A stretch of DNA of 64,000 nt, taken from contig JASGJH010000001.1 of assembly GCA_047601445.1 (NCBI GenBank), forward strand, positions 4,416,001 through 4,480,000. Reading direction: 5' to 3'. The position numbers and the translations under genes were made by a program. Source of the DNA: Myxococcales bacterium. Its GTDB lineage: Bacteria > Myxococcota_A > Polyangia > Polyangiales > DASUME01. Shown here piece by piece: positions 2,297-15,776 of this stretch. How positions within the stretch are numbered: the stretch's first letter is position 1; each line of letters opens with the position of its first letter. The notes beneath the pieces were generated by a model. It did not search any database and was not told the DNA's origin. It worked only from the letters and a program-made list of their open reading frames with translations.

Positions 2297-2438
2297 ATTC
2301 ATGCACTCTTCATGAATTACGTTAACACATTGATATCATACGAGTTTATTGCGGATGAAAGTTTTGCGCTTACATGGGGGTTCACGAGCGTGCAGGGATT
2401 TAACCGGCACTCACCTTGAACTTCACATGAACTTCATG
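2297..2438. promoter_or_regulatory. AT-rich divergent intergenic region with TTCATG/CATGAA operator-like palindromes
   Basis: ATTCATG-N7-CATGAAT at 2297-2317 and CATGAA-C-TTCATG at 2426-2438. TTCATGCACT occurs twice, directly upstream of an HTH gene. Confidence 0.5.
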
Positions 2439-2450
2439 CACTTTTACTGC

Positions 2451-3512
2451 ATGCTCCTTCCCGACAACGACCTTATCGACCAGGCCAAGCGGCTAGCTGG
2501 CGGGACGCAACGTGATCTCGCTGAGCAGCTGGGCGTTACCCCTGCGGCGATTTCGAACTGGTTGCGCGCTGGTCGAATTCCCGATGAACCGCGCGATCGA
2601 CTGCTCGCGTTGATCCGAGAGCGTGGCTCCGAACCGGCTGCAGCCGTGCGCGAGCCTCGAGATGCCGACGAGATACCCGAGCTACTTTGGCAAAGCCGGC
2701 GCGGCGATATCGAGCAAACTCGAATGTGGTCGCGCGGCGCATGGTGCTTCAACTACGTCCACGCACCGACCAACGGCTCGTCCGACTTTACCAGCATCGA
2801 CGTATGGCGAGCCTGGGAGCAGCTCCATACGCTGCCATCGTCCGGCAAGACGCACGTTTCCTTTCGCCATTGGCTTTCGGCTGAGTTCGACGAGTCCAGC
2901 AACACAAAGCCGGCGCCAAAGGGTTGGGGATTCCTCGAGGCGGATCACGTGTCCGGCGAGGTTCGCCACGAGGGCCGCAAGAGCGTTCCTGCTCCCCCCA
3001 ACATGGACATGCGACGACACAAAAACGTGCTCTACGTCGCTGCCCACAAACGGCTTCCTATCGGTACGGCCTACGAGAGTGGCGGCTATCACGTCAGCAC
3101 ACCCGGAGGAATACGGAGCAAGCGCAGCAAAGAGCAATCGATGGAGTTCGTTGCGTTCAGCCCCGGCTGCCCTACCGAAACGGCTCACGTATTAGTCAGC
3201 ATTCCCAGGAATGCCTATGCGCATCCGACCGCGTGCACGATCCACGCGCCCTATCAGCTCCTCTACGAGCTAGCCCAGCTCGCCGGCCAACCTGGCGCAC
3301 TAAGTAGCGTCGAGGAATTCATTGAACCTTGGGGAAAGCAGCTCCTGGTGCAACGCTGGGACTCGCCACCTTCAACGCTATTCGAGACGTTGCAACCAGA
3401 GCTTCCTAGTGATTTCTTCGGTGGCGGTCCTGACGCTCGCGACTGCCTTCATATCGCCGTGACGGTCCCGAACCCGCTGGTCCGCATCGCGATCCTCTGG
3501 GACATACGATAA
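2451..3512 (+). CDS. Cro/C1 (XRE)-type HTH protein with a large unknown C-terminal domain
   Basis: GTQRDLAEQLGVTPAAISNWLRAGRIP HTH motif; start uncertain (ORF open from 2349). Confidence 0.75.
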   Translation: MLLPDNDLIDQAKRLAGGTQRDLAEQLGVTPAAISNWLRAGRIPDEPRDRLLALIRERGSEPAAAVREPRDADEIPELLWQSRRGDIEQTRMWSRGAWCFNYVHAPTNGSSDFTSIDVWRAWEQLHTLPSSGKTHVSFRHWLSAEFDESSNTKPAPKGWGFLEADHVSGEVRHEGRKSVPAPPNMDMRRHKNVLYVAAHKRLPIGTAYESGGYHVSTPGGIRSKRSKEQSMEFVAFSPGCPTETAHVLVSIPRNAYAHPTACTIHAPYQLLYELAQLAGQPGALSSVEEFIEPWGKQLLVQRWDSPPSTLFETLQPELPSDFFGGGPDARDCLHIAVTVPNPLVRIAILWDIR

Positions 3513-3606
3513 TTGAGAGGCGACGTGGCATATACTCAGGTCAGGAGTACGCTTGGCCGCATCAGGAGGTGCGGAAAGGTCATAGTCAACCTTTCTGCGC
3601 GCATGA

Positions 3607-4626
3607 ATGGCGTCATTCGATGGTTTGTCCACTCGAACTAAGACCCACCTCAAGCTCGGTGCCATCGGCATCTGCGTCATGGCGCTGTGGGCCCTGTACG
3701 GGGTTGCGATTGGGAAGCTCACCCGCGTAACGGGAGGCGCCCCGATTCGGGCTCAGATTGAAGTGCTCGCGATGACGCTCGCACTCATCGTGCTCGAGAC
3801 CGGGTGCATCGCCTACTGGCAAAGCAACCATGTCGAGGGTCGCGAGCGCATCGCGCGCTGCCTGAGGAGCCACTACAAGGAGTTGGTCGCCCTGGGCCTG
3901 CTCACGTGTTTGGCGGCCCCTCTCTGGGTGCTGGCTATCATCTGGCTGGGCGATGCCAAGGTGGCCAACTGGATCGACCTCGGCAGCGCTCCCCTCTTCA
4001 CGGTGGCCTTTGCGTGGATGGTCCAGCTGTCGCGTGGCGGACGGCTGCCCAGGCACATCGCGAGCTACCTCAATCCCATTCTCTTGGCACTCGGGATGCT
4101 CGTGATCGTTTGGGAGCCCCTTTCCAGCGCTGGAGAATGGAAGACGGCCGGGGTCATCATCGCGGTCGTTAGCGGTCTCGGTACCGCCCTTGCCGCGGGG
4201 ACGCTGTCCAAGCTCACGAAGGTCGAAGGCCAGAAGCTCACCTCGATGGAGCTCGTGGCCCTGCGCCATGCCCTGCCAGCGGTGATCGTGTCGCTCATCT
4301 GGGTGGCCTACGCCTTGATTGAGCAAGACCTTTCTGTCGCGGCGCGGGTCTATGGCCTCGATAACCTGTTGTATCTGCTCCTGGCATGCACGTTCTTGAA
4401 CGTGGTGCCCAATGTCCTCTACGTGCGGTTCATCAAGGGACAGGGCTGGGAAGCCGCTGGCTACCTCTGGGCCCTTCTCCCGTGTTTCACGACGATCGTC
4501 GCGCTCTTCGCGGAGGAGAAAGTCGTGCTGTCCGAAACCGCCATCATCGGTGGAGTGCTTCTCCTGCTGGGATACGCGCTCAACACGTTCGCGGATACCG
4601 TGGAGAGCGCGCCGACTGGGGCGTAG
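3607..4626 (+). CDS. EamA/DMT-family membrane transporter-like protein
   Basis: About 10 hydrophobic helices in two repeats; DMT-like C-terminus (AAGYLWALLPCFTTIVALF.EE...IIGGVLLLLG). Confidence 0.7.
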   Translation: MASFDGLSTRTKTHLKLGAIGICVMALWALYGVAIGKLTRVTGGAPIRAQIEVLAMTLALIVLETGCIAYWQSNHVEGRERIARCLRSHYKELVALGLLTCLAAPLWVLAIIWLGDAKVANWIDLGSAPLFTVAFAWMVQLSRGGRLPRHIASYLNPILLALGMLVIVWEPLSSAGEWKTAGVIIAVVSGLGTALAAGTLSKLTKVEGQKLTSMELVALRHALPAVIVSLIWVAYALIEQDLSVAARVYGLDNLLYLLLACTFLNVVPNVLYVRFIKGQGWEAAGYLWALLPCFTTIVALFAEEKVVLSETAIIGGVLLLLGYALNTFADTVESAPTGA

Positions 4627-4778: not shown

Positions 4779-6692
4779 ATGGATCAACGCAAGCCACTAT
4801 TCCCCGCTTTGTCCCTCGACGATGTCCGCGAACGGCTCGGAGATGCACTGCCGCTGGACCTCTCGAGGCAGTTCCAGTTTTCCGAGGAGCACGAAGAACA
4901 GCGTGTACGTGACATTCGGGAGACGGTCGCTCCGGGAATGACATTTGCGGATTTCTGCGACGCGCGACTGCGCGCAGCGGCCGAGAACCCAATCCAGGTA
5001 GCGGAGGAGGAGTACCTACGAGAGACCGAGCAGGTTGAACCCGCACAAGGCGGATTGGATGTACTTAACTGGTCCGCGGAATATGTGCTGGAGATGAGCT
5101 CCGCGAGCTTCTCGGAGCACGCGCTCATTCAACACTTCGAACGATTTCGCGACTACGTGACGCAGATCTTGAGCGACCTTGCCAGGCCGAATCGAGAGTC
5201 ATTGGAACAGGGCGAGATGCTCGTTTTCATGATCGTATCGCCCGTAATCAAATGGCACCAGCACCTACAAGAGACGTCGCGCGAAGCAATCGTTGTCCTT
5301 CTCGAAGGCGCCATAGGCGCCATCAGCAAGGCGTTGCTGTCGGGAAATCCGGACCATGACTTACTCGATGCTCAGAACCATCTTCTCTACTACTACGACG
5401 TCATCATCCGAAGACTCGAGGTGGGGCCGCATCCGAACATCATCATTCGCCACCTGCGGATCCTAAGAAGCGTCAGACCATCGATCTGGGCCTCGGTCCC
5501 TGCACGAACCAGGGTGCAATACGCGCAGGTCGTCCTCGTTTGCATGTGCATGCACTTCGACCCGAGCAAGCCGTTCGCCACGAGCATGTCGTTTGAATAT
5601 TCGACGATGCTGGACTTCCGAAATGTGCTCGACGACGCCATTCGGTCGCCAGACGGCGCTCCGTTCCACGACCTCGACTTCTTGTTCAAGTGGTTCCTCG
5701 ACAAGCTCGAGACCGATGTTTTCAGCGGCCGCCACAGAATCAAGAGAGCGCCGAATCTGGCGGCTTTAAGCGAAGGGGAGAAGGCGGCAGTAGTCGAGCT
5801 GTACCGAAAGTTCTCTACCTACCGTACCTCGATCACGGTCGGGCACGTCGAAGCATTCTTGCTTCAGTTTGGAACGACGACTCGCATCCGCGCAGCTCTC
5901 CGGCTACTTGGACATACCAGATTCTACCCTCTTTGGGAGCTAGCCGAATCAATTCAACGGCTCCTTGGGCAGTGCCTGGAGGAGGAAAAGGGATCGCAAC
6001 TCGTCGTCGCCCCACTCGGAAGCGAACGCGGCAGCAAGGACATCATTGAATACCTGGCCTCGCACTCTCCACTGGGCAAGGAAATCCTGTTCGTCACGAA
6101 CGTGTCAGCCGCTCTTGCCGCAACTCGTGACTCCGGAACGATTCATTTCATCGATGATTGCCTCATCACGGCAACACAAACATTGAACACGCTTGGCGAC
6201 CTTACGGGCACACGCCAACGGAAACCACACCACACGGCGCATGTCGCTACTCTCGACGCTGCCGAACTTTCAGCGCTGCAGCAGCGCAAGCTGCGATTCC
6301 TATTCTGCGTTGCCACCGACAAAGGCACCGAGAGAGTTCGCAAGGAGATCAGCGCCGCGCGCCTCGACCCCGGCATGATTGACATTCGCTCAGGAGTCGT
6401 CGAGCCCATCTCAGCCAAGGCCTTCGACCCGATGGGACCTGTGCCCTGGGCGAGCATTTCTGAACGCGAAGAACTGAAGGAGTTCGCGCAAGCGGTTGGC
6501 TACGACATCCTGGCCGAAGCTGCAGCAGAGAAAGGTTGGAGCGACGGCCGACGCAAAGAGAGCGCGCTGGGATACTCGGACCTTCAGCGCTTGCTGGTAT
6601 TCCCTTACAACGTTCCAAAGTCGACTGTGACGCTGCTCTGGGGACGAGGGGGATCGATGGGCTGGAAGCCGCTGTTTCTCGGCTCCGACTAG
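4779..6692 (+). CDS. phosphoribosyltransferase-like (PRTase-CE type) protein with an N-terminal helical region
   Basis: VEAFLLQF...AALRLL..TRFY, IHFIDDCLITATQ (PRPP-loop variant) and LGYSDLQRLLVFPYNVPKSTVTLLW match the PRTase-CE pattern. Confidence 0.7.
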   Translation: MDQRKPLFPALSLDDVRERLGDALPLDLSRQFQFSEEHEEQRVRDIRETVAPGMTFADFCDARLRAAAENPIQVAEEEYLRETEQVEPAQGGLDVLNWSAEYVLEMSSASFSEHALIQHFERFRDYVTQILSDLARPNRESLEQGEMLVFMIVSPVIKWHQHLQETSREAIVVLLEGAIGAISKALLSGNPDHDLLDAQNHLLYYYDVIIRRLEVGPHPNIIIRHLRILRSVRPSIWASVPARTRVQYAQVVLVCMCMHFDPSKPFATSMSFEYSTMLDFRNVLDDAIRSPDGAPFHDLDFLFKWFLDKLETDVFSGRHRIKRAPNLAALSEGEKAAVVELYRKFSTYRTSITVGHVEAFLLQFGTTTRIRAALRLLGHTRFYPLWELAESIQRLLGQCLEEEKGSQLVVAPLGSERGSKDIIEYLASHSPLGKEILFVTNVSAALAATRDSGTIHFIDDCLITATQTLNTLGDLTGTRQRKPHHTAHVATLDAAELSALQQRKLRFLFCVATDKGTERVRKEISAARLDPGMIDIRSGVVEPISAKAFDPMGPVPWASISEREELKEFAQAVGYDILAEAAAEKGWSDGRRKESALGYSDLQRLLVFPYNVPKSTVTLLWGRGGSMGWKPLFLGSD

Positions 6693-6734: not shown

Positions 6735-7913
6735 TCAGAAGCACGCGTCGTTCGTGCACCCATTCGTGCAATCGGCGAGCACCGCGCTGACAGCACACAA
6801 CGACAGCGGACCGCACATAACCATGGCGACGGTGAGGTCATGCCCCGCGCACTCGTTGTAGTTCGGCGGGCACTCCGCGTCCGTGGTGCAAGGGATGCCG
6901 CAAGCCCACTGCTCGGCGGCACTGGTGTCGTAGTCGACGCAGGTCTGGGCGAACCCTCGCCAGGGGTCGCAGCTGACGCAGCTGAGCGTGCCGCCACAGC
7001 CGTCAGGCAGGGAGGGATGGCAAACGACGCTGGCCTCGCTTAGCGCCTGGGCGCAGGTCTTGGGCACGCACGGAGGCGGGGCGCACACGTTGTTGGTGCA
7101 GACCTCGTTGCCGCCGCAGCCCTTGGCGCACTCGGACGTCAGGTCGTGCGGGACGCCGCACGCGTCCATCACCACGCCGCAGCTGGCCGACGTCGCGCAA
7201 CCAAAGTTGGAGACGCACGCATCGAGGCCTGCCATGCCGCCGGTTCCTGCGTCCAACAGTGGCGGGGGTTCAGGCGTGCTGGCGTCCATCTTGGGCAGCC
7301 CGGCATCGGCGCCTGCGTCGTCGGCGGGCAGAGGGCGCGGCTCGGAGCTCTCGAGCAGGATCAAGACACTGAAGTGCTTGAGCTCGATGGTGGCCTTGTC
7401 GTTGTCTACCTTGGCCATGCCAGCTGGCTTCCAAACCGTGTCCTTCTCATCGTCCAGGTAGGCGAACGTGAGCTTCTTCTGGTCGGCGCCCTTCGAGACG
7501 GGAACCTTGAGGGTCACGGCCTCCTTGAACACCGTGCCGTGCGGCGTGAGCACGTAGGGTGCCGAGGCGGGTGTGTCCTTTTCATCGAGGGTCTTCACCA
7601 GTTCGACCGCGACGTTGTCCTTGGGACGCACGATGCTGATCTCGATGTCCTTCTCGACCGCACCCGGCGCGATGCTGAGTTCCGCGCCGGACTTCAGACT
7701 GAGCATGCCGCCCTTGTCGGAGGTCACGAGGGCCGAGCTCGCCTGACCAGCGCTCGCACCATCGTCGATGCCGAGCAAGGCCCCCTTCTGCGGAGTCTCC
7801 GAGCTGCAGGCCGCGGACAGCAAGAGCACGAGTGTAGTCAACGTGAGGCAGGCTCGATGCGTGGCAGTCGAAGGCTGCGCGTGGGCGCGTGAACGAATAG
7901 GCGTCAGGGTCAC
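6735..7913 (-). CDS. lipoprotein with a ZU5-like domain and Cys-rich C-terminus
   Basis: Lipobox LSAAC; GGMLSL..GAELSIAPGAV...PYVLTPHGTVFKEAVTL...LKHFS; Cys-rich tail. Confidence 0.75.
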   Translation of the reverse strand: MTLTPIRSRAHAQPSTATHRACLTLTTLVLLLSAACSSETPQKGALLGIDDGASAGQASSALVTSDKGGMLSLKSGAELSIAPGAVEKDIEISIVRPKDNVAVELVKTLDEKDTPASAPYVLTPHGTVFKEAVTLKVPVSKGADQKKLTFAYLDDEKDTVWKPAGMAKVDNDKATIELKHFSVLILLESSEPRPLPADDAGADAGLPKMDASTPEPPPLLDAGTGGMAGLDACVSNFGCATSASCGVVMDACGVPHDLTSECAKGCGGNEVCTNNVCAPPPCVPKTCAQALSEASVVCHPSLPDGCGGTLSCVSCDPWRGFAQTCVDYDTSAAEQWACGIPCTTDAECPPNYNECAGHDLTVAMVMCGPLSLCAVSAVLADCTNGCTNDACF

Positions 7914-8145: not shown

Positions 8146-9879
8146 CTAGCTCGTCACCGCGTCTGGTTCCGGCTCTGGCTCCTGCGACCCACCGCTCACC
8201 GCCTGCGCGAGCAGCATGTCCCGCAGGTCCGCCAGGCTGTGCTCCAGGACCTCGTAGGAGAGCTGCAGGCTGGCCACCATGGCTTGCATGTCTTCGAGCT
8301 CGAACGGCTGGTTGGCTTGGATTCGCTGGTGCGCGAGCTGAACCGCTGCCAGCAGCGTGGCCTGCAGGCCGGTGAGGTGCGGCGCGAGCTCCGAGTCACC
8401 ATGCTCCTGGATCCACGCCAGGCCACGGTCCCACCACGGGCTCTCCGCGATGCCACGAAACAGCGTGAGCAGCGCCTGCGCCGGGTCCTGCTTCTCTTCG
8501 GTCGGGCCGGCGCTCAGCTGGGCCAGGAAGCCCCCCACGAAGGTGGCGAGCTCGTCGTTGTCCCGGCGGGCCTTGGCTCCAGTCAACCAGCGATTGCCGA
8601 TCGCAATCGCCGCGTGGCGCGCGAGCGTCCAGGCAGCCTGCTGAGTCTCGGAAAGCTGACGGGCGGGCTTCCACGCGAGCCAGGTACCCACGGTGGTCGT
8701 GCGAGAGAGGAGGTCGCGTAGCTCGGGCGCGATCACCACGCGCTCGCCTGCGTGCTGCAGGATGTGCCAGCTCGAGCGCAACAGGGGAGGCCGGGTGACG
8801 GTAATCGGCGAGCTCCATGGCTCCAGCTTCGCGTGCAAAGCGGCGACGTCGGGGAACTCTGCTCCGAGTTGAGCGGTGAGTCGAAGCACGGCTTCCCTGA
8901 GCAGTAAGGGGTTCACGCTGATCCGTGGTCCGACGTCCTCCTCGTCCGCGGGTGCTTGGTCGGGGGGATGCAGCGCCAGGTGTGCCGCCAGAAGGCCAAG
9001 CATGGGCGCATTTAGGTGAAACCTGAGGAACTCTTGGAGGAGGTTCTCGGCGAGGCCGGTGCGGCGCCGCGAATACGCGCGCCGAGCGATCTCCGTCGCC
9101 CGCAAGTCGCGGGCGTCGGCCTGAAAGGGCATTCCAGGCCGCGTGATCACCAGCGCGCGGTCTCGCAGATCGACCGTGCTCGCATGCTCGATCTTCGGAT
9201 CCACCTGAATCTCGAAGAAGATCTGCGTCTCGTGGGCGGCTTCCACGAGCACGGGTATCGCGACCGGAGCCTCCCCCGGGAGCTCGGCGATGAGCGCGTA
9301 CCAGCCCGGTTCGAGCGCCAGGTGGCAAGTGAGGTAGCCCATGTCCGGATCGAACCTGGCCACGCTGACCAGCGGCACCACCGTCTCTTCCGTGGCCCGT
9401 TGGAGTGAGAAGCTCTGAAACGCCCGCCGATAGCGGCCCTGGATCTCTTTGGAGGCTCCGCGCTGCGTAAAGTTGGCGCTGCCCGGGTCGCGCACGCTGA
9501 CGAGCAGGGTCCCGCCCGTTCCGAGGCCAACGTCTCGAGCTTGCGTTTGCGTCGCCGCGGCCACGGCGGCCTGGTGGTACTCGTGACTCGTGGACGTACC
9601 GCGTAGCGGCACCGCGCTGCGGAACTCGACGCCGGGAACGCCCACCGTCACGTCCTTGCCATCGCCCTTCACCACGAACCGTGATTCCACGCTCTGGCCA
9701 GCCAGGATCGCGCGCACCTTGTACACGCCTGGAGAGAGCGCGAACGTGCATCTCCCCACGGCGCGCTCGACGACGTGAAAGCGCGCATCGATCACACGGA
9801 CTTCCGCCAAAGACTCGCCGGGGTCGATGGTCACCGACGACGGCCGGTCGGGCACGTCGTCGTTCTCAAAGGTCGACAT
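8146..9879 (-). CDS. uncharacterised caspase-associated protein (predicted beta-sandwich + helical domains)
   Basis: 577-aa ORF overlapping the caspase stop by 14 nt; two LxPGxY-containing beta segments; PMLGLLAAHL helix; no signal peptide. Confidence 0.75.
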   Translation of the reverse strand: MSTFENDDVPDRPSSVTIDPGESLAEVRVIDARFHVVERAVGRCTFALSPGVYKVRAILAGQSVESRFVVKGDGKDVTVGVPGVEFRSAVPLRGTSTSHEYHQAAVAAATQTQARDVGLGTGGTLLVSVRDPGSANFTQRGASKEIQGRYRRAFQSFSLQRATEETVVPLVSVARFDPDMGYLTCHLALEPGWYALIAELPGEAPVAIPVLVEAAHETQIFFEIQVDPKIEHASTVDLRDRALVITRPGMPFQADARDLRATEIARRAYSRRRTGLAENLLQEFLRFHLNAPMLGLLAAHLALHPPDQAPADEEDVGPRISVNPLLLREAVLRLTAQLGAEFPDVAALHAKLEPWSSPITVTRPPLLRSSWHILQHAGERVVIAPELRDLLSRTTTVGTWLAWKPARQLSETQQAAWTLARHAAIAIGNRWLTGAKARRDNDELATFVGGFLAQLSAGPTEEKQDPAQALLTLFRGIAESPWWDRGLAWIQEHGDSELAPHLTGLQATLLAAVQLAHQRIQANQPFELEDMQAMVASLQLSYEVLEHSLADLRDMLLAQAVSGGSQEPEPEPDAVTS

Positions 9880-10951
9880 CGGCGGCTCCTACCTGAAAGT
9901 CCTTCTCGATGGCCGAGCCGCCCGACACGCCCCACACGACGCACAGCGATGCGGGAAGCGGGACAACGAACCTTCCGTCCACCACGGGGATGTTGTTGGC
10001 GAGTCCATTGCGCACCACGTGCACCTCTCCGCCTGTGATCGTGAACTTCGCCAACACCCCGAGCTTGATTCCGGAGCGAATCGTAAAGCTCGCACCGTCC
10101 ACCACCGACACGACCTTGAAGCCTTGAGGCACGTCTTGCGGTGCAGGCCGGCCGAACGTCACCTCGCCGATGGTCGGCGTCACGATCTCAGGGAGATCGG
10201 CCGGCTGTCCATCGCACAGGGCGCTCCAATTTTCCTGGATGTAGCCCTTGATGTCGCGGGACGAGAGTTGCTCCAAGTCAGGCGCAGCATGGTCGAACGC
10301 TCTGAGCAGGGCGTGGGTGAGCAGGCCGTGTACCTTGTTGTCGCGCTCGCGAATCGGTCGCTCCTGCGCTTTGCCGCCTCGCGAGGTCGCGTAGAGCTCG
10401 AAGAGCTTGACCCCCTGCGCAAGAGCAGGATCCGCAGCAAGACGAAGCGTGGGCGGAAACGCCATCTTGTACAGCTCGGCATCCCTGCAGCAATCCATCA
10501 CCAGAACGATCTCGCCGAATGCACCGTGATCGCGGACTCTGCGCGCATACTCGGTCCCGCTGATGTTCCAGTTCGCAGAGCGCGTCGAGTCCGCCACGTA
10601 AAGCGCAGCCTCCGGGGTGGTGCTCGTGCGCTCGCAGAACCCATGACCCGAGAAATAGAGATAGAGTCGCCCCGCTGGGCGGCGGATCATGCTCTGATCG
10701 GGCTTGAAGAGGATCTTGTTCAGGACGCCCACGAAATCAGTCAGGATGGGCGGGAAAGGCGGCGGGTCGCCTATCTTCGCCTCGTTCGTGACCAGGCAGG
10801 TGACGTTCTCGGGCGGGACGTTGCCCCCGTTGGAATCCACGAGCCACTTGTACATGAGCTCAACGTCTCGCACCGGACCTTTGAGCTCGGGCAACCCCGC
10901 GTCCGCATAGCGGCTGATTCCCACGAGTATCGCGTAGTCCTCTTGCGCCAT
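9866..10951 (-). CDS. caspase-family protease (peptidase C14)
   Basis: DYAILVGISRY, LKGPVRDV, YFSGHG (catalytic His), VLVMDCCR (catalytic Cys), GLLTHALL. Confidence 0.9.
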   Translation of the reverse strand: MAQEDYAILVGISRYADAGLPELKGPVRDVELMYKWLVDSNGGNVPPENVTCLVTNEAKIGDPPPFPPILTDFVGVLNKILFKPDQSMIRRPAGRLYLYFSGHGFCERTSTTPEAALYVADSTRSANWNISGTEYARRVRDHGAFGEIVLVMDCCRDAELYKMAFPPTLRLAADPALAQGVKLFELYATSRGGKAQERPIRERDNKVHGLLTHALLRAFDHAAPDLEQLSSRDIKGYIQENWSALCDGQPADLPEIVTPTIGEVTFGRPAPQDVPQGFKVVSVVDGASFTIRSGIKLGVLAKFTITGGEVHVVRNGLANNIPVVDGRFVVPLPASLCVVWGVSGGSAIEKDFQVGAADVDL

Positions 10952-10958
10952 GAGGGCC

Positions 10959-12494
10959 TCACCGTGGCTGATTGAGGATGATGTAGGCCACGCTGTCCAG
11001 GGTCGCGCGGTCCTTGTCGTCGAACTCACTGTGGGACTTCCCCGTGGAGGCCAATCCCGGGCCGCCCTGGTGAGGCGACCAAATCAAGCACTCAGAGTGG
11101 CGCGCGAAGAACTTGCGGCAGACTTCGATGCTCCAGAAATCATCGTTGCCGAACACCGTGTCGTTGATGAGGAAGCGTTCCATCCCCACCAGCGGGAGGT
11201 CCACTTCGCGCTCGAGCATGCCCGACACGAAGTACAGCAGCGACGCCGGATAGAGGACCTTGACCAGGTCGTCGTCCTGCTCGCGCGGATCGCTCATGCC
11301 GAACAAGCGGAAGAAGCGGATGCTGGTTGCGTGCTCCGCCAGTGTCGCGGCAAAGACATCGTGAGAGACGGCCGGCGCTTCGAAGATCACGTGATACTTG
11401 AGTCCAGGCACGATGCGGTTCGCGGCGCGCAGAAGATTGCAGATGTAGATGGCACCGGTGCTGTGGCCCACGAGGGTAATCTTCGGAACTTCCCCGCCCT
11501 GGTCGACCACGTGCTTGAGCGCGTGCAGGAAAGCCGTGCCGCCGTATTCGTCGCCGTCCCGAAATGCATCGGCGGTATCGCCCTTCATGCGATCCCACCA
11601 GATCTCTCGGCCGATCTTGTCGAGGTAGAGCTCGCGCAAGCACTCCTCGACCAAGGTCACGTAGCCACCGTGCGATCGTCCAGAACGCCTTCTACGGATG
11701 GTGCGAATCACGATGGTGGCGACGGTCTTGGCGACCTTGAACCACGAGATGACGCCCTTGGTCTTCCCGGGCTCCGCGTCGAACATGCGCTCGGAGGCTT
11801 CCTTGCTGATCAACGAGTCGCTGGCGACCGTGCTGCCCGTTCCTTTGTTGGAGGCCACAGGCGCGGCCGACGCGCCGATGCCGTTGTACGTGCTCTCGAC
11901 AGCATGTCTGAAGGCATCATCATCCTCAAAGCTGGCTTCGATCTGCTCCACCAGCTTCTCTTCGTCGGGCATGCTGCCTTTGCTGGTGGCCGCAATACCT
12001 CCAACGAGGGCTGCGTCGACCACATCGAGCTCCGCGGGCGGCGTCGCGCGGGCGCCGTTGAACCATGCGTCCATGTCGTTCTTGAGCGTCGCCTCGTCGA
12101 CCGGGACCTCCGCGTCACCTTTTAGCCCGTCGACCCCTCCAAGCTTCTTCAGCACCCAAACCGCGCTCTTCTTCATGAACTCGCGAAAGAGGCTCTCGTG
12201 CAGAATCTCGCCCAGGTTGTTGAGCGGAGCCTCGAAGAAACCCGACTCCCAGATGAAGAAGATGGGATAGGCCTGAGCCTGCTCCTTGTAGAGGGGAAAG
12301 AGCGCTTCGCTTGCGGAGGTGCGCGCCGACTTCTCACTCACCAAGCCACCGTGGAAGTGGACCACGATGCCGCCCGGGGCCTTGGCAGCGCAGGCTTGCT
12401 CGACAATGCGCTGCACGTCGGCTGCGGTCGTGCTGGACTTCGGGGAGAGTCTACCGGCTGCGGTATGGATGACGTGATCAGCCATGTTCGGCAT
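10959..12494 (-). CDS. alpha/beta-hydrolase (lipase-like) with a large internal insertion
   Basis: VVHFHGGLV, PIFFIWESG, nucleophile elbow LVGHSTGA, FEAPAV, SLLYFVSGMLE, late His SHSEFDDK; start at 12494 or 12485; no signal peptide. Confidence 0.85.
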   Translation of the reverse strand: MPNMADHVIHTAAGRLSPKSSTTAADVQRIVEQACAAKAPGGIVVHFHGGLVSEKSARTSASEALFPLYKEQAQAYPIFFIWESGFFEAPLNNLGEILHESLFREFMKKSAVWVLKKLGGVDGLKGDAEVPVDEATLKNDMDAWFNGARATPPAELDVVDAALVGGIAATSKGSMPDEEKLVEQIEASFEDDDAFRHAVESTYNGIGASAAPVASNKGTGSTVASDSLISKEASERMFDAEPGKTKGVISWFKVAKTVATIVIRTIRRRRSGRSHGGYVTLVEECLRELYLDKIGREIWWDRMKGDTADAFRDGDEYGGTAFLHALKHVVDQGGEVPKITLVGHSTGAIYICNLLRAANRIVPGLKYHVIFEAPAVSHDVFAATLAEHATSIRFFRLFGMSDPREQDDDLVKVLYPASLLYFVSGMLEREVDLPLVGMERFLINDTVFGNDDFWSIEVCRKFFARHSECLIWSPHQGGPGLASTGKSHSEFDDKDRATLDSVAYIILNQPR

Positions 12495-13119: not shown

Positions 13120-13524
13120 GCTGCAGCCTCCCTGAGAGTTTCACTCTGGGAGCGGAGAACTGCTCTCGCAACGCGGCTTTCCTTTGAGCTTCAAGGACCA
13201 GCTGAGCGCGGTCGTATCCGAACGGATAGCTCACCTCCACCTCACCGCTCAAGATTTCGATAGCCAAGCGAACACTTCGACGGCCACCACGAGCGGAATG
13301 GTGTCGCCTCCTATCGCGCGCAGTCTCATGCGTGTCTGGGCGCCGGCACCTAACGCGTCGAGGTGCCAAGCCGCTGGGCGCGGGATTTCGCGTCGCCGTT
13401 TCATGAGCGCAGGCGTCGGTGGCAGAGCCATGCGAGCGAATGCGAACGGCAAGGGATGCAAAAGCCGTTGGTCCGTCGACGAGGATTGTTCTCGTGATTT
13501 GGAATGCGTACCATTCTGCAGAAT

Positions 13525-14625
13525 ATGGCGCTCCAGACTGGACGTCGGGTCATTCTTTTCCCGCGCACCGAGGTGCAGCGCGTGCGCGGTGCCGTTGGTG
13601 CGCACTTCGCGTCGCATCGAGGCCGGTGCCTGCTCTTTCCAGAAACCGGTCACGCTGTCTTGGATCGCGCCCCGGCGAGAACCATCAAACGCCTTGCTGC
13701 TCTTGGGGTGAAGATTCGAGCAGAGGCAACGTTACGACGTCCGAACAGCACCATCAGTTCTGCTCCGCGAGGCCAGGCGATTCTCGACACCCTGGAGCTG
13801 GCGTGGGCGGTCCGTGCCCTTGGCATCGGTGCCGCCAGTCAGGACGGACTTGGCATCCGCGTGGGACTGATCGACTCGGGCGTAGACCTCTTGCATCCCG
13901 CGTTGATCGGCAATGTCTCCGCGGGATCTCCGCGTGGGGGACTCGATTCCCTCGGCCACGGCACGCATTGCGCAGGAATTATCGCAGGGCGGAAGCTTGG
14001 AACATCGCCGCGATTCGGCATTGCCCCGCGCGCGCACGTCCGAAGCTATCGAGTGTTCGACGCTGACGCGACCACGGACGAGGGCCATGTTCGCGAGCAT
14101 GTGCACCGCGCCGTCGAGGATGGCTGCAAAGTCATCGTGCTCGCGGCCGGGGTTCCCGCCTCGAACTTTCTCGCCGAGGACGCGACCCTAGGTCAGTGGC
14201 TCGCAAGCGTCGGATGCTTGATGTTTGCCGCAGCAGGCAACGAGAGCGATCGGCTGGCACATCGTGTCCTGCCCACCTTGGCTCCTGCCAACGCCCCACA
14301 GGTCTACGCCATCGGCGCGGTGAACGGCGCGGTGCGCCTGTGGAACTCCTCCAATGGACTTGGAGTCGATGCCGCGACCAGGGTCGACTTTGTGGCCCCT
14401 GGCGTGGATGTTCTGTCGGCTTGGCCAGGGAACCGAACGATGCGCGTCTCGGGAAGCAGCGCTGCGACCGCCGTAGCCGGTGGCGTAGCGGCCGCGCTCT
14501 GGTCGCGCACCCCTGCGCTGTCGGCACGAGAGGTAATCACGCTGATGTCACGGCTTTGCCGCATGGACGTCCTCGGTGATCGCGACGGAATCGGCACGGG
14601 AATGCTGTCTCTATTGAACAAGTAG
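13525..14625 (+). CDS. S8 (subtilisin-like) serine protease without a signal peptide
   Basis: VGLIDSG (Asp), HGTHCAG (His), AAGNES (oxyanion Asn), SGSSAAT (Ser); start at 13504 or 13525. Confidence 0.88.
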   Translation: MALQTGRRVILFPRTEVQRVRGAVGAHFASHRGRCLLFPETGHAVLDRAPARTIKRLAALGVKIRAEATLRRPNSTISSAPRGQAILDTLELAWAVRALGIGAASQDGLGIRVGLIDSGVDLLHPALIGNVSAGSPRGGLDSLGHGTHCAGIIAGRKLGTSPRFGIAPRAHVRSYRVFDADATTDEGHVREHVHRAVEDGCKVIVLAAGVPASNFLAEDATLGQWLASVGCLMFAAAGNESDRLAHRVLPTLAPANAPQVYAIGAVNGAVRLWNSSNGLGVDAATRVDFVAPGVDVLSAWPGNRTMRVSGSSAATAVAGGVAAALWSRTPALSAREVITLMSRLCRMDVLGDRDGIGTGMLSLLNK

Positions 14626-14654
14626 AACCAAACAACTTTGGAGAGGCCAAACGT

Positions 14655-15776
14655 ATGAGCGAGTCTTCATCCCTCGACGACCTGCTTGGCAGTGTCGCAC
14701 GCATGCTTGCAAGCAACCCGGCGCTGCGGGCCCGGATCGCCTTTGTCGACATTCTGCCGAACGGCGCACCGGCGGAGGCAAACGGTTCAGCCTTGAACGC
14801 ACCAACCAACGGTGCCGGCTTGGTCACGCCGAAGTTCAATTTCGAGGGCCACTCGGTGATCGCGTACGTCGCGGAGCGGTACCTCGACCTCAATGACCAG
14901 GCGACCTTTCAAGCGCTGCAGTCGGTCAAAGCGAACGATCCGCTCGCGCGCGGTGACATCGGGGAATTCGCCGGATGGCCTGACAAGTTGAAACACGATC
15001 CCGCGCTCGAAGCGGAACGGCAGCGCTTGGGCGGGACTCGCAGCTTTTGGCACTACATCAACATCCCGTACGATCCGGCGAACCCCGATCAAGAGTTCGA
15101 CCTCGCCACCATCTCGGGCGATCTGCTCAAGCAGCTCCCGCAACAACTCGACCTCTTGGCCAACCCCGACCCGCTCACTGCAGCGGACGCGTTGTGCTTC
15201 GCGCTGCATCTGGTTGGAGACCTGCACCAGCCGCTTCACTGCGCAGCCTATGCCGACGGTCAGTACTTCAGCACCCCACCGGAATATGACCAGGGCGGCA
15301 ATCTCGTGCGTTGGGGCAAGGACGCGCCGCGAAGCCAAAACCTGCACGCCCTTTGGGACGACTCCATCGCTGCGTCCGGAGCCAATGTCGCTAGCCGAGT
15401 GGACGAGGTCATGCGCGACCACCCCATTGAGTCCTTCTCGGCAGGCGACCTCGCCAAGGACGTCGACGCGATTGCCCTGGAGACCTTCGCCCTGGCGAAG
15501 GACGCCTACAACAAGTTCTTCGCGGAAGTCACCTACCAGGGGCCAAGCTCGGCCACCAAGGGTGGCCAGCAGTTCTCACCACCGTCCCCACAGTATCGGG
15601 CTGACGCGCGCGAGATTTGCCGTCGGCAGGCAGCACTGGGCGGCTATCGCCTGGCACACTTGCTCGCGGAACATTTGGGGCAGGCAACAGGAACGGCGAG
15701 AAGCCGACGGCACGGGAGCACGGCTCGAAAGGCCGCGAAGAAGGGACCGGCTAAGAAAGCGCGTAGCCGCCGCTAG
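14655..15776 (+). CDS. S1/P1 nuclease with a 60-aa N-terminal extension and a basic C-terminal tail
   Basis: FNFEGHSVIA, WPD, WHYIN, HLVGDLHQPLH, DQGGN, NLHALWD, GGYRLAHLL; GGAGAGG RBS. Confidence 0.92.
   Translation: MSESSSLDDLLGSVARMLASNPALRARIAFVDILPNGAPAEANGSALNAPTNGAGLVTPKFNFEGHSVIAYVAERYLDLNDQATFQALQSVKANDPLARGDIGEFAGWPDKLKHDPALEAERQRLGGTRSFWHYINIPYDPANPDQEFDLATISGDLLKQLPQQLDLLANPDPLTAADALCFALHLVGDLHQPLHCAAYADGQYFSTPPEYDQGGNLVRWGKDAPRSQNLHALWDDSIAASGANVASRVDEVMRDHPIESFSAGDLAKDVDAIALETFALAKDAYNKFFAEVTYQGPSSATKGGQQFSPPSPQYRADAREICRRQAALGGYRLAHLLAEHLGQATGTARSRRHGSTARKAAKKGPAKKARSRR

Follow-up and report, generated by a model that had tools for sequence, protein, structure and literature searches.

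A bacterial operon predicted to gate an alpha/beta-hydrolase through a caspase and its partner protein

What would a bacterial caspase-like protease act on when its gene lies between those for an alpha/beta-hydrolase and a protein without a named family? This question is raised by a three-gene locus in a 64,000-nucleotide stretch of a Myxococcales bacterium genome (GenBank assembly GCA_047601445.1, contig JASGJH010000001.1, positions 4,416,001 to 4,480,000 of the forward strand), the whole of which is called the window here and is numbered from its first letter. All three genes are on the minus strand and encode a 511-amino-acid (aa) alpha/beta-hydrolase, predicted to be a zymogen (10959..12494, start possibly at 12485), a 361-aa C14 caspase-like protease (9866..10951) and a third protein of 577 aa (8146..9879), the predicted caspase-binding partner. 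The hydrolase and caspase genes are 7 nucleotides apart and the caspase and third genes overlap by 14, coordinates that agree with an earlier note made on this DNA from its sequence. The operon is present as a single copy in the window's genome.

We consider it probable that this operon is a protease-gated cell-death (defence) module, in which the caspase-partner pair cuts the hydrolase zymogen at Lys-Gly. According to a structural model, the caspase would dock on the third protein through a contact between two immunoglobulin-like (Ig) domains, and together they would cleave the hydrolase behind the Lys of its Lys-Gly loops, above all at K246. By analogy with the published LcHydrolase discussed below, this cut would remove an acidic helical insert and switch on a likely toxic serine hydrolase, and the freed basic amphipathic helix may act as a lid or on a membrane. 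The caspase-partner pair would be the constant core, and the effector would be exchangeable.

Gene order and the predicted Lys-Gly cut sites

The three genes co-occur widely, as the earlier note had asked to be checked. In 64 of 80 hydrolase loci collected from GTDB the full operon was found in the same order, 55 times as separate genes and 9 times with the caspase fused to the third protein; four further loci are cut by contig ends and 12 have no caspase, and a caspase adjoins the hydrolase in 67/80. No fourth gene is conserved across the hydrolase loci. Several of the 12 caspase-less loci adjoin other proteases, namely trypsin, an S8 fusion or CHAT; for example, the C14 caspase is replaced by a CHAT-kinase protein after the hydrolase at L039:8509-12408 and by a trypsin-PPC protein at L005:2870-5719. 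Further caspase-third fusions were seen at the metagenome loci L092, L096, L098 and L099, and a quick tree of the caspases, which is midpoint-rooted, has 82 rows with near-duplicate loci left out and serves description only, places such fusions in two distinct spots. The protein distances of the three genes are correlated across 60 loci (0.71, 0.59 and 0.63, with permutation maxima of at most 0.19), for which shared ancestry alone could suffice.

Four of the five [KR]G pairs of the hydrolase lie between its WESG (residues 82-85) and GHSTG (343-347) regions, at the positions given in the earlier note. These minus-strand sites, each a predicted cut, are GLKG at the N-terminal border of the insert (site 1, K125/G126, 12117..12122), TSKG (site 2, K172/G173, 11976..11981), which is the weakest and restricted to a clade, SNKG (site 3, K217/G218, 11841..11846), which is not specific to this caspase, and KTKG (site 4, K246/G247, 11754..11759), which is almost universal and is the predicted activating cut. 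Scoring of 8,000 candidates gave 784 relatives of the hydrolase, and the best 119 were used to follow site conservation. In these homologues K or R occupies sites 1-4 in 91, 61, 96 and 91% and the next position is G in 87, 46, 87 and 89%, conservation that includes the insert borders, where it had been predicted. Background windows in the GTDB hydrolase set hold [KR]G in a mean of 2% and a maximum of 22% of sequences; the four KG motifs are more than chance.

Sites were counted in 77 of the 80 GTDB loci, three frameshifted or split loci being left out, and the loci were divided into those with a separate caspase, those with a fused caspase-partner and those without this caspase. At site 4, [KR]G is present in 54/57 separate and 9/9 fused loci (63/66 caspase-linked loci) versus 1/11 loci without caspase. 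The corresponding counts are 39/56, 0/9 and 1/11 for site 1, 14/57, 0/9 and 0/9 for site 2, and 30/55, 0/9 and 7/11 for site 3; since near-copy rows (three from Stenotrophomonas and two from Planctomycetota) are included, all these counts overstate independence. In the window's clade basic-Gly sites stand at both borders, and the distant loci have them in 63/66 cases at site 4 and 39/65 at site 1. Judged from the aligned sequences, site 4 is the core predicted site and putative four-site gating is a feature of a subclade that includes the window, because 7/11 hydrolases lacking this caspase have site 3 and none of the 9 fused loci has any of sites 1-3. The idea that all four sites are universal was rejected on these locus counts.

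Hydrolase relatives fused to an S8 subtilase, with a trypsin-like gene before them, were found at L056:6983-10738, L057, L067 and L070. In L056, L057 and L067 the residues at sites 1 and 4 read E-S-L in place of K-G, which suggests a possible re-tuning to a Glu-specific protease.

The hydrolase is modelled by AlphaFold as an alpha/beta-hydrolase core with a helical insert, at a predicted local distance difference test score (pLDDT) of 91. The earlier note had described the insert as acidic and of low complexity. The first description stood, with 20% D+E against 12% elsewhere in the protein; the second was rejected, as the insert is modelled as folded helices, has 11 columns conserved at 90% or more and is only slightly lower in entropy (3.84 versus 4.13 bits). 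The least confident ten-residue blocks of the model, with pLDDT of 55, 56, 62 and 69, are at or next to the KG sites. Helix 247-270 (11685..11756, minus strand) contains W251, conserved at 97%, together with the 19-residue stretch of highest hydrophobicity in the protein, and ends in consecutive Arg residues; we infer that it is a candidate lid or membrane-docking helix, which would become the new N-terminus after a cut at site 4.

The catalytic residues of the hydrolase are intact, with an oxyanion HGG at residues 48-50, nucleophile S345, H488 and conserved D408, D432 and D492, and its catalytic positions are kept in nearly all relatives (S345 78/78, H488 76/78, D408 76/78, D432 77/78). All Pfam alpha/beta-hydrolase matches are sub-threshold, including Abhydrolase_6 (E 0.002, below cut-off), and PADLOC has no family matching the hydrolase. 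Fold searching gave Z scores of ~11-12 to many alpha/beta-hydrolases (best Z 11.8, root-mean-square deviation (rmsd) 3.7, 212 aligned), and all of the top 50 matches listed are of alpha/beta-hydrolase type. Because these matches are generic, the substrate of the hydrolase cannot be named; for the published relative, too, no substrate is named in its report. A lipase as the established identity was rejected on the same ground, which makes the membrane-damaging pro-lipase of the earlier note a candidate at most, and attack on a lipid ester is a tentative assignment that we put somewhat below even.

The caspase and its predicted partner

The caspase matches PF00656 (Peptidase_C14) at E 3.6e-6, with 27.3 bits against a cut-off of 21.4, and its H103/C155 dyad is invariant in 118 caspase sequences. 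D29 and D153, which we take to be acidic S1-pocket residues, are also invariant in the alignment, and a basic P1 residue is predicted. [quoted passage not shown] Searches of PADLOC and NCBIfam returned only generic caspase matches for the operon. In a genome of the same order, a second caspase gene directly follows the third gene (L112:8273-9481).

The third protein has no library family in Pfam, PADLOC, NCBIfam or PHROGs, and in this respect the earlier note was right to call it uncharacterised. It is, though, not isolated: a profile search found 2,392 clusters (50% identity) at E<=0.001, and proteins of the CanB type and Y4kD are its probable remote kin (see below). No PDB sequence relative of substance was found (best E 0.008, a gingipain C-terminal domain over 52 columns), and a whole-chain fold search gave no match, while the N-terminal Ig domain, the one domain folded alone, did match known folds; tblastn against plasmids gave no match, and an Atlas search with the C-terminal tail gave no usable one. 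The predicted structure (pLDDT 89, predicted template modelling score 0.87) starts with a transthyretin/Ig-like sandwich at the N-terminus, which is followed by another sandwich, a solenoid of helices and a helical tail that varies, all encoded on the minus strand. The N-terminal domain (residues 12-85, 9625..9846) carries a PGxY motif and matches known folds with Z 9.9 and rmsd 1.9 over 69 aligned residues. The second beta-sandwich and the solenoid (residues 86-405, 8665..9624) hold the conserved motifs FxSxxPL..T..HExH, R..E.AR, KFxNPMLG..AHLL, PDV.AL and PP.L..SW. The first of these spans residues 86-102 (9574-9624), and conserved polar residues are found at R130, E263, R266, K288, H300 and D344; the HExH motif and these positions could form a ligand or metal site. 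The profile of the C-terminal tail (8200..8490) matches only 41/87 relatives.

A profile of the N-terminal Ig domain of the third protein, which is transthyretin-like, also picks out the Ig domain at the C-terminus of eight partner caspases (E 4e-4 to 0.02), which suggests that the two Ig domains are paralogues. Weak matches of this domain in 10 other stretches, none with an adjoining caspase or core domain, were rejected as generic sandwiches. For the caspase together with residues 10-410 of the third protein, complex prediction, also proposed in the earlier note, gave a score of 0.83 against 0.00 for the best control, the runs sharing at least 83% of contacts and the partner having a pLDDT of at least 84; the score mark is reached by 116/157 solved and 2/215 mismatched pairs, counts that are only rough with our own alignments. 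The modelled interface joins caspase residues 222-241, 293-297 and 335-353 to partner residues 30-35, 49-54 and 67-72, among which are the conserved D31 and G51-x-Y53, and no like solved complex was found by sequence. The model supports the view that the caspase may bind the third protein via an Ig-Ig contact. In the caspase-partner fusions of L061 and L066, the N-terminal Ig domain of the partner begins at about residue 300-311 and only one Ig domain seems to be left, which would fit a tethering role of the Ig pair.

The fusions and the complex model thus favour the caspase partner that the earlier note had proposed; its further suggestion of a sensor is not singled out; an obligate subunit or scaffold fits equally. 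We see even chances that the third protein senses rather than being purely structural. In the strongest alternative, a lesser but serious one, it would be an obligate folding or structural subunit, or a brake, of the caspase, with the trigger sensed by the caspase or through loss of the partner; the zymogen logic would be the same. This is in line with the published Canu system, where CanA and CanB were purifiable only as a pair and CanAB activated CanC in vitro without any phage factor (PMC12799240), with an interface modelled on the N-terminal Ig domain of the third protein only, and with family searches and fold searches of the whole chain and of the N-terminal Ig domain that found no known sensor domain in it. 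However, ~320 further residues with the near-invariant polar and aromatic positions H99/E100/H102, R130, E263, R266, K288, H300, D344, W371 and W403 go beyond what a tether needs, and the C-terminal tail is variable and at times fused to trypsin and PLD (L101).

Effector exchange, distribution and proposed function

The same core also occurs behind other effectors. We collected 19 metagenome loci via the third protein with a one-motif scan, which makes the sample biased. In 18 of them the caspase lies directly upstream of the third protein (once in pieces), and the remaining one is cut. Ahead of the caspase stands this hydrolase in one locus and an M12/astacin-like metalloprotease in 11 by Pfam and one more by clustering; in six loci that gene is cut off. 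The M12 variants have an intact HExxHxxGxxH zinc motif and, in 11/11, an invariant Cys in a short N-terminal peptide followed by [KR]/AAL. This Cys may work as a cysteine switch. M12-type loci are L084, L086-L089, L091-L095, L098, L122 and L146, with a propeptide junction of [KR]/AA[LV]; L122 is from a genome of the Actinomycetota sample and L146 from a Sinorhizobium plasmid. Among other plasmid loci with the core, L142 has an S8 protease upstream, L141 has NucA-trypsin downstream and L101 has the partner fused to trypsin and PLD. Since the caspase-partner core also follows an M12 metalloprotease with [KR]/AAL at the end of its propeptide, the effector looks swappable, and a second effector with a basic-small junction gives independent support for K/R-directed processing. 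A caspase-to-metalloprotease cascade is possible in the M12 loci.

Two side observations concern these loci. A gene of ~194 aa without Pfam match follows the fused M12-type operon at L096:2713-3300, L098:5651-6235 and L100:1749-2333. The partner domain is fused to trypsin and PLD at L101:8417-12766 and L133:3875-9241, across the window-type and Y4kD-type branches.

The operon is rare. No full match to the third protein was found in nine genomes of the same genus (72-99% complete), and three were found among 31 genomes of the same order; counting the centre genomes, full matches number 3/401 in the window's own phylum and 2/401, 2/401 and 0/401 in samples of other phyla. Sixteen phylum labels occur on the caspase tree, where the rows nearest to the window are Nitrospirota and Hahella loci. 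This rare, scattered distribution fits horizontal spread.

Caspase-dependent site conservation, gene order, co-divergence and the Arg-Gly precedent of LcHydrolase argue for the caspase-activated zymogen put forward in the earlier note. An anti-phage role, suggested by precedent and distribution, seems somewhat likelier than not. Several results nevertheless weigh against our interpretation. PADLOC (E<=1e-20) matches only 7/117 neighbouring open reading frames (ORFs) in 6/22 loci, some of them generic helicases and with no control set for comparison; 117 of 138 ORFs picked by a greedy procedure were scanned. The hydrolase comparisons single out no lipase, site 3 also occurs where this caspase is lacking, none of the nine fused loci has any of sites 1-3, and the homology to the CanB type is remote (32-33% in hhalign against the Canu-type genes alone). 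As for sensing, LcCaspase and CanAB are both described as active in vitro without an added trigger (bioRxiv 10.1101/2025.11.14.688446; PMC12799240).

A protease-gated module could also answer stress, development or inter-cell conflict rather than phage, which we judge unlikely. The sparse PADLOC neighbours and the rarity and single copy of the operon agree with such a role, and general stress triggers are raised for related modules by Evans et al. (bioRxiv 10.1101/2025.11.14.688446). On the other hand, the closest systems with assays, LcHydrolase and Canu, are reported as lethal on cleavage or anti-phage, the distribution of the operon is patchy and does not follow taxonomy, pAgo and Wadjet adjoin L013 and L052, and a PRTase-CE gene lies 1.5 kb from the operon in the window. 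Very improbable is that the KG motifs are uncut, flexible lid hinges of a hydrolase that works uncleaved while the caspase acts on another substrate: loops often contain Gly, site 3 is kept in the absence of this caspase (7/11) and only a single site is kept in 17/57 separate-caspase and 9/9 fused loci, yet K and R interchange at the sites while being retained together with G, site 4 is lost along with the caspase (1/11), and both the R/G precedent of LcHydrolase and the independent [KR]/AAL of the M12 variant point to cutting.

The product of the PRTase-CE gene (4779-6692), 1.5 kb downstream of the operon, has 637 aa and carries the PRTase-CE domain (PF24390 E 1e-20; PADLOC PRTase_III-A) at its C-terminus; this is a possible conflict gene. 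Just downstream of the operon, 6735-7913 encodes a lipoprotein-like ZU5 protein with a Cys-rich C-terminus, which is not conserved in related loci. An S8 subtilase without an obvious signal peptide and the basic-tailed S1/P1 nuclease after it (13504-15776) could be another protease-nuclease pair, and 2349-4626 holds a helix-turn-helix (Cro-like) protein with a long unknown C-terminal part and then an EamA-like transporter. As to the cytoplasmic location given in the earlier note, a Kyte-Doolittle scan found no strongly hydrophobic N-terminus in the three operon proteins; in the window there is no promoter or terminator above chance, no tRNA and no GC anomaly, and a Pfam scan of window neighbours found no metallo-beta-lactamase (MBL).

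Comparison with known systems

Protease-hydrolase pairs of this kind, which the earlier note suspected might already be reported, have indeed been published: LcCaspase cuts the 296-aa LcHydrolase at R73/G and R117/G, and the N-terminal and the C-terminal fragment together kill E. coli, as described by Evans et al. (bioRxiv 10.1101/2025.11.14.688446). Both hydrolases adjoin a C14 caspase and have basic-Gly at both borders of an insert located after the early strands and before the nucleophile elbow. By eye and on one row, Gly-x-x-x-Trp and an amphipathic helix come after the second LcHydrolase site, as they do after K246, although the Gly-to-Trp spacing of three residues is kept in only 19/66 distant loci of this hydrolase. 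The differences are its 511 aa versus 296 aa, an insert of 121 versus 44 aa and up to four sites, mostly Lys; moreover, LcCaspase is a single chain of 594 aa, whereas the caspase here is 361 aa long, carries an Ig domain and has its predicted partner as a second chain.

Canu consists of a caspase with an Ig domain (CanA), the co-purifying CanB and an MBL pro-nuclease (CanC); the CanAB complex activates CanC and CanABC blocks T4 (PMC12799240). Both operons have three genes, with a caspase that ends in an Ig fold, a second protein forming a complex with it and a zymogen whose gating insertions hold conserved Gly, the complex and the zymogen being predicted here. In Canu, however, the effector is an MBL nuclease encoded downstream, while a serine hydrolase is encoded upstream here; CanB has 347 aa, whereas the third protein has 577 aa, two PGxY sandwiches, the HExH motif and a helical tail; and the CanC loops read G-L-G and S-M-G rather than K-G. 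Because the effector is an alpha/beta-hydrolase and no MBL is present, filing the locus as Canu was rejected, and when caspases were searched for in 317 genomes belonging to a single family, no Canu locus was identified. One plasmid in that paper's supplement (Table S2, row 32) is described with 'ChyC' for CanC, perhaps an earlier name. By analogy, and with LcHydrolase compared by eye only, the operon would work like the LcHydrolase and Canu zymogen modules.

The third protein is likely a remote relative of CanB-type and Y4kD proteins, judging from profile comparisons. By eye, KaeCanB shares with it an N-terminal PGxY sandwich motif and a Lys-x-x-x-Pro helical motif. Against the B genes of five Canu-type plasmid loci (caspase, B gene and MBL; L136, L138, L140, L144 and L145), its profile scored 4.3-9.2 bits for four, with one not listed, and at most 2.1 for 231 shuffled or reversed controls. 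With hhalign, it reached 32-33% against the Canu-type B genes alone and 82% (E 1e-5) once six Y4kD-like relatives were included, while controls stayed at or below 3.3%. In the Atlas the third protein is linked to clusters with C14 and Y4kD_C (PF27295), at a template modelling score of 0.51 by query. Plasmid pNGR234a has the same order of alpha/beta-hydrolase, caspase and ~550-aa unknown (NGR_RS31425/30/35), which we take to be y4kF-y4kE-y4kD; the locus is very distant, with hhalign values of 3.6%, 12% and 39% for the three protein pairs, and profile searches of the plasmid gave no match.

Obligate caspase-alpha/beta-hydrolase pairing has been predicted in VMAP/MoxR-vWA ternary systems (PMC7159879); by contrast, no MoxR, vWA or VMAP gene was seen around the hydrolase loci here. 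The accessible texts of PMC8195603 and bioRxiv 10.64898/2026.10.19.760177 do not mention the operon, and we found no published account of the partner family or the M12 variant in a search that most subscription papers and the supplementary locus figures of Canu lay beyond.

A wider reading, which we hold just short of even, is that the operon represents a widespread two-chain platform, held by a homotypic Ig-Ig contact and distantly akin to CanAB, in which an infection-sensing solenoid would license interchangeable zymogens by cuts at basic residues. If so, its effectors would include a four-latch serine hydrolase, a cysteine-switch M12 metalloprotease and possibly S8, NucA-trypsin and PLD proteins, and Canu would be one branch of a larger family. 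The role of CanB and the targets of caspase-activated hydrolases are left open in two recent papers (PMC12799240; bioRxiv 10.1101/2025.11.14.688446), and the family is a large natural set for testing both, given its 2,392 clusters, its fusions in nature, and the interface and cut sites predicted for it. Effector swapping behind one core is also a route by which further effectors gated by proteolysis could be discovered, the putative M12 zymogen being one example. That a caspase activates an alpha/beta-hydrolase at R/G has already been published for LcHydrolase, and the operon presents a 511-aa version of this kind with up to four predicted sites; new here are a large hydrolase with several predicted sites, a partner family without a name and with a predicted homotypic Ig interface, and the apparent exchange of effectors, including a putative M12 zymogen.

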